From Simkaniaceae bacterium (GTDB taxonomy: Bacteria > Chlamydiota > Chlamydiia > Chlamydiales > JACRBE01): a stretch of DNA of 64,000 nucleotides. The DNA is taken from assembly GCA_022763045.1 (NCBI GenBank), contig JALEGI010000007.1, positions 64,555 to 128,554 on the forward strand. The letters are read 5' to 3'. Made by a program: the position numbers and the translations under genes. Positions 42,065 through 42,211 of the stretch are shown piece by piece; the first letter of the stretch is position 1, and each line of letters starts with the position of its first letter. The notes beneath the pieces were generated by a model. The model was not told the DNA's origin. It did no database searches and saw only the letters and a program-made list of their open reading frames with translations.

Positions 42065-42211
42065 GAGCGCCTTCAGGGCGCTCAGGGGGCCCCAAATTTG
42101 CACTATCGCGACGAACCAAGCGTATAGTTAATACGTGTGAGGAGCGATAGGGTAAAGATGGGGTGCCATGATGCGGCCAAAAGGCTGTGTTGCACTTATG
42201 CAACACAGCCT
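42065..42211 (+). repeat. Structured repeat element B, copy 1 (full length, about 147 nt; candidate ncRNA or REP-like element)
   Basis: Helices: gagcgcc/ggcgctc; cccca/tgggg; ctatcgc/gcgatag enclosing gacgaa-[cgtat agtta atacg]-tgtgagga; and a terminal aggctgtgttgca/tgcaacacagcct. It shares sequence and architecture with 50057-50160 and 63293-63432. Confidence 0.75.
42182..42211 (-). terminator. Possible intrinsic terminator of hctA (13-bp stem hairpin, short U tract); it doubles as the 3' hairpin of repeat B
   Basis: On the minus strand, 10 nt after the hctA stop: aggctgtgttgca-taag-tgcaacacagcct followed by TTTGG. The U tract is weak. Confidence 0.35.

Follow-up and report, generated by a model that had tools for sequence, protein, structure and literature searches.

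A family of structured intergenic repeats with a kink-turn-like loop in a Simkaniaceae-like chlamydial genome

Outside model bacteria, structured intergenic repeats have been catalogued only poorly. Among the families that have been described, bcr1 of the Bacillus cereus group is about 155 bp long and transcribed, and compensatory changes keep its multi-hairpin RNA structure; some copies lose stability (PMC3184786). REP2 of Neisseria is an intergenic repeat of 120–150 bp that has no terminal inverted repeats, folds into internal stem-loops and carries an SD-like sequence and an ATG (PMC3184786). The definition of REP elements includes a GTAG/CGTC tag (PMC3733652). In the consensus of the kink-turn, an RNA motif, G.A and A.G pairs follow a bulge of three nucleotides (PMC2790904), and a G at the 3n position has been reported as a condition that allows ion-induced folding (PMC4382518). 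In the literature that we searched, structured intergenic repeats have not been described in environmental chlamydiae.

We analysed a 64-kb stretch of DNA (the window) from a genome that is, as judged by protein sequence comparison, deep-branching and Simkaniaceae-like within the chlamydiae: HctA was identified by an equivalog match, the best relatives of RlmD are Chlamydiota/Simkaniaceae MAGs at about 50% identity, and the best relative of its IDH is 74% identical. An earlier, sequence-only reading had picked out a repeat in three copies, element B, as a candidate new non-coding RNA or single-stranded DNA hairpin. We report here that B is part of a family of at least six intergenic copies that is real and previously uncatalogued, and that belongs to an already known kind of bacterial structured repeat. 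In our best reading, the family is specific to its lineage and goes with the structured intergenic repeats of the bcr1/ERIC/REP2 kind, with a putative function.

Copies, fold and covariation of the B-type repeat

The three B copies are present where they had been reported, and an nhmmer search of the 64 kb with a three-copy profile recovers them and nothing else (E = 7e-51, 1e-47 and 2e-38). A four-block pattern made from the conserved joints likewise has three matches in the window, compared with none in 100 shuffles, and the mean column identity of the three-copy alignment is 76%. Copy 1 (c1) occupies 42041–42211 on the plus strand and scores 181.7 bits with the covariance model described below. 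It consists of a P0 hairpin (42041–42062), a P1 hairpin (42065–42071 with 42077–42083), a core rod (42076–42178) and a P5 hairpin (42182–42194 with 42199–42211). Copy 3 (c3), at 63293–63457 on the minus strand (171.5 bits), is about 72% identical to c1 and has the same full anatomy, with P0 at 63457–63436, P1, a core at 63320–63421, and a P5 whose end abuts a truncated A-type palindrome (see below). P0, P1 and P5 are unrelated in sequence to one another. Copy 2 (c2), at 50056–50162 on the plus strand (116 bits), has neither P0 nor P5, is missing the 5' half of P1, and is 91% identical to c1 over 107 nt; it ends 2 nt short of the stop codon of a convergent methyltransferase-like ORF (50164–51285, minus strand).

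Two of the boundaries need revision. Pairwise local alignment with long flanks extends the homology between c1 and c3 by 24 nt in the 5' direction, into P0, which has a compensatory change of its own (A-U to G-C). Since the homology runs from P0 onward, the full units are 42041–42211 and 63457–63293; the originally reported units lie where they were said to, but are too short at the 5' end. The description of c2 as truncated does not hold in the sense of a random truncation, because c2 is a complete core with its closing stem, GGGCGCUCAGG/CCAUGAUGCGCCC, intact.

This closing stem was revealed by folding. In both RNAalifold and single-sequence predictions, the originally proposed P1 goes unused; its 3' half (GGGCGCUCAGG) is paired with CCAUGAUGCGGCC, so that the core becomes an irregular rod of 104 nt. 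The closing stem co-varies too. In c1, the structure with the closing stem has a predicted energy of -82.1 kcal/mol, compared with -82.0 kcal/mol when P1 is enforced; the corresponding values for c3 are -89.9 and -89.7 kcal/mol. In these models, P1 and the closing stem are mutually exclusive and isoenergetic in both full copies. The fold of element B has an energy of -81 kcal/mol (z = -9.1 against shuffles).

Covariation was judged against slid controls, in which the 3' partner of each helix was moved by 1–3 columns. Six copies (counting both subfamilies) are too few for a formal statistic of the R-scape type; these six represent two to four independent lineages, all within one 64-kb window. 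In the three-copy alignment, 10 pairs have changed on both sides and still pair, and standard pairs make up 95–96% of cells. The slid controls gave 0–1 such pairs and 31–52% paired cells. The helices therefore co-vary as had been proposed, and every one of the compensatory examples previously listed for P1–P5 is correct. The further claim that the single-stranded joints stay conserved does not set them apart from the stems within B, where c1 and c3 differ at 28% of joint and 27% of stem positions, but stands against the A-type relatives, with 52% identity in unpaired compared with 32% in paired columns. Element B is a folded single-stranded nucleic acid selected for pairing, a conclusion that the sequence-only reading had reached and that the covariation within B and against A bears out.

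Element A rods and the module common to A and B

All three B copies lie within about 0–60 nt of a second kind of element, an A-type rod or palindrome. A-type rods have about 71 pairs and a base formed by 14-nt terminal inverted repeats, GCTTGTAAAGCCGC/GCGGCTTTACAAGC. The intact example, A_63534 (63534–63715, plus strand; core 63574–63677), has 71 predicted pairs and a predicted energy of -82 to -83 kcal/mol on the plus strand, compared with -58.5 kcal/mol on the minus strand. A_63118 (63118–63292, plus strand; core approximately 63158–63261) is 93% identical to A_63534, and its 3' inverted repeat is cut off at the start of c3. The third rod, A_49847 (49847–50030, plus strand), is 184 nt long, starts at the icd stop codon and contains a core at 49895–49988 that is homologous to the B core. 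Two solo palindromes are also present. The first, at 41960–41982, 58 nt upstream of c1, is perfect and corresponds to two A-type inverted repeats back to back (GCTTGTAAAGC-G-GCTTTACAAGC); the second is at 63751–63773. Each lies within a 57-nt repeated module (41931–41987 and 63722–63778).

To relate the two elements, a covariance model built from the three B copies was run unfiltered over the window. Apart from the B copies themselves and their reverse complements, it matches the interior of all three A rods: A_63534 at 63574–63677 (32.7 bits, E = 3e-6), A_63118 in a segment at 63137–63320 that includes the neighbouring P5 (37.8 bits), and A_49847 at 49895–49988 (22.9 bits, E = 7e-4). All three matches are on the plus strand at an equivalent internal position. 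On the reverse strand, the A regions stay under about 6 bits, and nothing unrelated in the window exceeds 10.7 bits. A sequence-only profile of the B copies, searched with nhmmer over the 64 kb, does not detect the A rods. B is thus not the stand-alone, three-copy non-coding RNA for which it had been a candidate, since the covariance model joins it to the adjacent 184-nt rods of element A.

Common to A and B are, in order, the 7-bp P3, GACGA, an apical hairpin, GUGAGGA, the P3 partner, and AGAUG 5 nt further on. P3 itself is wholly different: CUAUCGC/GCGAUAG in B and GUGCUGU/ACAGCAC in A, the latter as found in A_63534. When c1 is compared with the A core at 63574, 19 of the 36 core pairs have had both bases replaced with pairing retained, 10 are unchanged and 2 differ on one side. 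Identity in this comparison is 32% for paired and 52% for unpaired columns (p = 0.005 against 28%); only between B and A-type copies are the joints the conserved part. Pairing between A and B is retained in 90.6% of cells, compared with 30–42% in slid controls, in an alignment of the six copies fitted by the covariance model, which favours pairing. Because a kink-turn signature is shared while 19 of 36 stem pairs have been swapped, elements A and B are two subfamilies of one family.

The structural models define the shared module as an irregular rod of about 104 nt, predicted to comprise a closing stem, P2, a tandem G.A loop, P2b, P3, the kink-turn and an apical hairpin. In B-type copies, the rod is flanked by the small hairpins P0, P1 and P5. 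In A-type copies, it is lengthened by about 40 more pairs, down to the 14-nt terminal inverted repeats.

The kink-turn-like module of c1, read from the sequence and the predicted structures, spans 42103–42150 on the plus strand. Its C-helix is P3, formed by CUAUCGC (42103–42109) and GCGAUAG (42144–42150). A 3-nt bulge, GAC (42110–42112), is followed by G.A, A.G and A.G pairs between GAA (42113–42115) and GGA (42141–42143), with the apical P4 hairpin between the two kink-turn strands. The 3n position is G. This signature (CUAUCGC-GAC-GA/GA-GCGAUAG and equivalents) is found in five of the six copies; in A_63534, for example, the kink-turn strands are GAC-GAG and GGA. The deviating copy is A_49847, in which the kink-turn strand is GACGCAG and P3 is partly broken. 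The conserved loop thus matches the kink-turn consensus at the level of sequence, from which a three-dimensional kink would be predicted.

The arrangement of the copies is that of a mosaic. c3 starts at the exact point where the cut falls in the 3' inverted repeat of A_63118, and further A-type units lie nearby, so that the intergenic region at 63.04–63.78 kb can be read as a composite of A, inverted B, a spacer, A and A'. Truncation or decay and nesting are both seen in the family, the former in c2 and in P3 of A_49847, the latter in c3 against A_63118.

Distribution, genomic context and the selected strand

Searches for relatives were largely negative. With Rfam 15, only two tRNAs reach the gathering threshold in the window and element B has no match. 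Permissive scans of the three loci gave sub-threshold matches only, inconsistent between copies, in agreement with the earlier statement that B fits no nameable RNA family. A group II intron fragment was considered and rejected, as group-II-D1D4-2 matched c1 only (14 bits, E = 0.92) and was not reproduced on c2 or c3. No copy was found downstream of icd in the closest relative (the one with 74% IDH identity) or in 39 chlamydial loci, and nhmmer and covariance-model searches found nothing in 80 rlmD loci and the closest icd contigs. In GTDB representative genomes, a 15-base pattern gave chance matches only and the four-block pattern none; the latter also gave no match in IMG/VR, and 11 chance matches in GC-rich coding DNA in the JGI metagenomes. 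The A-type palindrome has a single match in GTDB representative genomes, inside a 1019-aa ORF of an unrelated MAG, which we attribute to chance. A blastn search against plasmids and phages returned nothing. The one informative match came from an exhaustive phmmer search with a spurious 60-aa frame that runs across A_63534. The match, MCI5051762.1, is recorded as a partial 'hypothetical protein', lies where a 155.7-kb contig from a Simkaniaceae MAG ends, and is 69% identical over 36 residues. It implies that at least one further A-type copy exists, which is probably in the same genome as the window.

The two strands of the repeat are not equivalent. The sense strand folds better than its complement by 12–28 kcal/mol in all six copies, and G.U pairs number 36 in the sense-strand structures, which have a single A.C 1x1 mismatch, and 8 in the antisense folds. 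Neither a palindrome in double-stranded DNA nor an inverted repeat bound by a protein would show a difference of this sort between strands, so it is a single folded strand, of RNA or of single-stranded DNA, that is under selection. From the folding models, RNA is most likely the molecule on which this selection acts. It is also conceivable that the copies are functionless, either decaying segmental duplicates or protein-binding palindromes of double-stranded DNA whose hairpins are incidental. The very small number of copies, the near identity of the close pairs (c1/c2 at 91%, A_63118/A_63534 at 93%) and the degraded P3 of A_49847 are as expected for such relics. Neutral decay, however, breaks pairs, whereas 10 within B and 19 between A and B have been compensated, and a palindrome would not give 36 G.U pairs against one A.C mismatch; we regard this explanation as very improbable.

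Translation does not account for the conservation either. No reading frame is open in all B copies or conserved across copies, and the one that stays open across the A elements differs by frameshifts from copy to copy. Each B copy does contain GAGGAG with an AUG 13 nt later and a frame open downstream, as would a small protein gene or a portable translation start resembling Neisseria REP2. These downstream frames are, however, unrelated to one another, share about 5 codons, and in two cases are antisense to real genes; A copies have AUG-N6-UAG or no AUG, and the frame open over them is antisense as well as frameshifted. Neither of two spurious-ORF queries has a homologue in a set of 5.8 billion proteins. 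A coding or start-supplying role is extremely unlikely.

The clusters occupy three intergenic regions, with copies in either orientation relative to the flanking genes. c1 is flanked by the 3' end of hctA and the 5' end of rlmD, and its strand is opposite to that of both genes. The region that holds c2 and A_49847 separates the converging 3' ends of icd and the methyltransferase-like ORF, and both elements are sense to icd. The third region, bounded by a minus-strand ORF that ends at 63732 and by the start of gmhA, contains c3, about 250 nt upstream of that start, and two A rods; c3 is sense to its flanking genes and the two A rods are antisense. The earlier generalization that all copies sit at gene 3' ends is thus true of c1 (hctA) and c2 (icd and the ORF), but c1 is equally at the 5' end of rlmD and c3 is upstream of gmhA. 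Scans of the three loci revealed no consistent promoter- or terminator-like signal at any copy. Copy 1 had been suggested as a possible source of the hctA terminator. Its 13-bp P5, read on the hctA (minus) strand, is followed by UUUUGG only and was not called by the terminator scan, which needs five or more T in 8; in c3, neither strand carries a U-tract after P5. Because of their orientation, the favoured strand of c1 and of the A rods upstream of gmhA would require its own promoter or antisense read-through.

These features bear on whether the copies might be independently transcribed, paralogous sRNA genes that act in trans or sequester a protein, with the kink-turn rod as their functional domain. 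Strand-specific selection, the loop motifs kept across subfamilies and the lack of an Rfam match would all suit such genes, as would the position of the element at two loci (rlmD, gmhA), where it diverges from a gene start and cannot be a neighbour's 3' UTR. On the other hand, no copy has a promoter-like site upstream or an intrinsic terminator downstream, A_49847 starts at the icd stop codon and leaves no room for a promoter, and truncated or decayed copies (c2, P3 of A_49847) and nested ones are typical of repeats. We consider sRNA genes unlikely. The earlier proposal of a new non-coding RNA or single-stranded DNA hairpin survives in that the element is folded and strand-specific, but a mosaic arrangement with no consistent promoter or terminator suits a structured repeat between genes, or a non-autonomous element, better than a classical sRNA gene. 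The chlamydial regulator IhtA was also considered in view of the adjacent hctA and was rejected: IhtA is a single-copy sRNA between sctC and tRNA-Thr (PMC3469542), and the present element is multicopy, differently located and without an Rfam match.

Context likewise bears on the idea that the element is a bistable RNA switch that controls the adjacent gene in cis, in the manner of an attenuator or a riboswitch-like leader. The isoenergetic alternatives P1 and closing stem, both of which co-vary, are what such a switch would use in the two full copies. Against it, the neighbours (hctA/rlmD, icd, gmhA) are unrelated and the element varies in orientation and position relative to them, c2 and all A copies lack P1, and there is no consistent terminator or SD-sequestering partner. 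A dedicated switch is distinctly improbable.

The selected strand might instead be DNA, folded into a hairpin for an HUH-type transposase (RAYT or IS200/IS605-like) or an attC-like recombinase encoded elsewhere. A strand-specific fold that tolerates G.T pairs, conservation of structure beyond sequence, clustering at palindromes, solo palindromes, and the abutment of c3 on a cut palindrome would all be accommodated. IS200/IS605-type and RAYT genes had been suggested as partners to look for; among window ORFs of at least 150 aa, however, there is no transposase, integrase, reverse transcriptase, TnpB, TnpA, HUH protein or RAYT. The 373-aa ORF beside c2, considered as a TnpB with an omega-RNA, is methyltransferase-like and not TnpB. 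The GTAG/CGTC tag of REP superfamilies (PMC3733652) and attC R''/R' boxes were not seen on reading the repeats. GC skew is negative throughout the window, so the inverted orientation of c3 is not due to a replichore switch, and the loop fits an RNA kink-turn consensus that has no known role in DNA. A DNA hairpin substrate is in our view doubtful.

We therefore favour a lineage-specific repeat family in which the selected molecule is a co-transcribed RNA whose rod and kink-turn work in cis to influence processing, stability or protein binding, a reading to which we assign a probability of roughly 55%. The RNA would be made by read-through from, or co-transcription with, neighbouring genes, and the copies would have spread by duplication or non-autonomous transposition, as suggested by the A-type inverted repeats, the solo palindromes and c3 abutting a cut palindrome. 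Mobility is something we infer from these features, since a check for target-site duplications found no direct repeat shared by the two flanks of any of the six copies and no empty sites were found. Once transcribed, the rod and kink-turn could act in cis as a protein-binding or RNA-processing/stability module, as bcr1, ERIC, Correia and REP elements are thought to do, and the alternative between P1 and the closing stem may make the B-type rod conditional. A more ambitious version, which we hold only tentatively and think unlikely, is that bacterial structured RNAs of a new class have the kink-turn rod as their functional domain and travel on a module that moves or duplicates. Such an RNA might be bistable (P1 or closing stem) and recruit a specific kink-turn-binding protein, or it might serve as the RNA partner of a recombinase or nuclease. 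The two subfamilies would in that case amount to divergent 'alleles' of a single RNA machine and not to passive repeats.

Stems that have been almost wholly rewritten around a retained kink-turn-type loop provide unusually clean evidence for selection on a single-stranded fold. If the selected molecule is RNA, the family could serve in three ways: as a candidate RNA module for protein binding in a lineage of obligate intracellular bacteria, as a test case for the use of kink-turns by bacterial mobile repeats, and as a marker of genome plasticity and assembly breaks in Simkaniaceae-like MAGs. Even if it is an ordinary co-transcribed repeat, its annotation is useful in averting spurious calls of 51-, 60- and 88-aa ORFs.

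Comparison with known structured elements

Several known systems resemble the family in part. The ends of IS200/IS605 elements, PATE and the TnpB omega-RNA differ from it in that similar subterminal hairpins are not found here and the window has no tnpA or tnpB. Integron attC sites, which measure 57–141 nt and are recognized as a folded single strand, resemble the present repeats as imperfect palindromes conserved in structure over sequence; in contrast to attC, the repeats have no R''/R' core sites, neither an integrase nor a cassette array accompanies them in the window, and the neighbours are housekeeping genes. With REP/BIME and REPIN–RAYT systems, the family shares palindromic units in mosaic intergenic clusters and hairpins kept by compensatory change. 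Its units, however, are 104–184 nt long, 4–8 times the length of REPs (20–40 nt), and have no tag at the feet of the hairpins and no RAYT in the window.

Hairpin MITEs (ERIC/IRU, Correia/NEMIS, RUP) are similar to the A-type rods, which at 184 nt and with 14-nt inverted repeats are multicopy, intergenic and often placed right after a stop codon. The differences are the lack of a target-site duplication and of a cognate transposase in the 64-kb window, a one-strand G.U bias and conserved internal loop that exceed what conservation of the inverted repeats needs, and the B-type copies, which have no terminal inverted repeats and end instead in the unrelated hairpins P0 and P5. Neisseria REP2 has its length, intergenic location, internal stem-loops, SD-like sequence with ATG and freedom from terminal inverted repeats in common with the B-type repeat. 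REP2 is, however, fixed upstream of genes, to which it supplies expression signals, whereas B copies are of mixed orientation with unrelated downstream frames.

The loop resembles established kink-turns (Kt-7, box C/D and riboswitch k-turns) in its Watson–Crick C-helix, 3-nt bulge, G.A and A.G pairs, and G at 3n. It differs in its host, a multicopy repeat and not an rRNA, snoRNA or riboswitch, and in being a match read from primary sequence. Among the repeats, bcr1 is likewise multicopy, intergenic and non-coding, with a structure kept by compensatory changes. The two have no sequence similarity; bcr1 ends in 5-bp direct repeats, none of which flank the copies here, and is known to be transcribed, whereas the present family is known from its DNA. 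The chlamydial family differs further from bcr1 in possessing a kink-turn-like loop and a second subfamily that bears inverted repeats.

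Rod-forming repeats and their kinship

Three 184-nt repeats, the element A (A-type) rods, lie at 49847-50030, 63118-63292 and 63534-63715. These rods are long and strand-specific, and their ends are 14-nt terminal inverted repeats. Internally the A-type rods are homologous to, though diverged from, the core of element B, the neighbouring structured intergenic repeat; elements A and B should therefore be treated as a single family.

In both full copies of element B, the small P1 hairpin (42065-42083 and 63415-63433) and the stem that closes the rod (42076-42178 and 63320-63421, respectively) overlap in their pairing and are mutually exclusive. 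The two folds are predicted to be isoenergetic, differing by no more than 0.2 kcal/mol in either copy. Exclusive pairing at equal predicted energy suggests that the full B-type element may be a two-state element, switching between P1 and the closing stem.

A database protein and a palindromic module

MCI5051762.1, annotated as a partial 60-aa 'hypothetical protein' at the end of a 155,659-nt contig from a Simkaniaceae MAG, is really the antisense translation of a further A-type rod. That contig terminates within the palindrome, a break which suggests that A-type repeats fragment assemblies of this lineage.

A 57-nt module occurs twice in the window, at 41931-41987 and 63722-63778 (79% identity); a perfect palindrome of 23 nt, GCTTGTAAAGCGGCTTTACAAGC, forms its end. 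The copy at 63722-63778 encodes the last ~15 codons and stop (63732) of a minus-strand ORF that runs past the window end.

Gene content of the window

Within hctA (42237-42468), internal repeats with an 18-nt period encode a Lys/Ala-rich tail; these repeats keep open long spurious frames on the opposite strand, such as 42137-42538 (+). Adjacent tRNA-Ile(GAT) and tRNA-Ala(TGC) genes at 44734-44890 (-) form a pair typical of the rRNA operon spacer; a search of the 64-kb window found no rRNA match.

Positions 1-26800 have a GC content of 39-40%, versus 45-50% across the remaining window, and are dense in paralogous glycosyltransferase genes (GT25, GT92, GT11) as well as Methyltransf_24/21/23 genes. 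The block has the look of an island for glycan/LPS modification and may have arrived by horizontal transfer.

A 487-aa ORF (37901-39364), underlain by three 138-nt tandem repeats (38339-38752), carries IQ calmodulin-binding motifs (Pfam E 5e-24). The motif is eukaryote-like, which suggests that the product is an effector interacting with the host.
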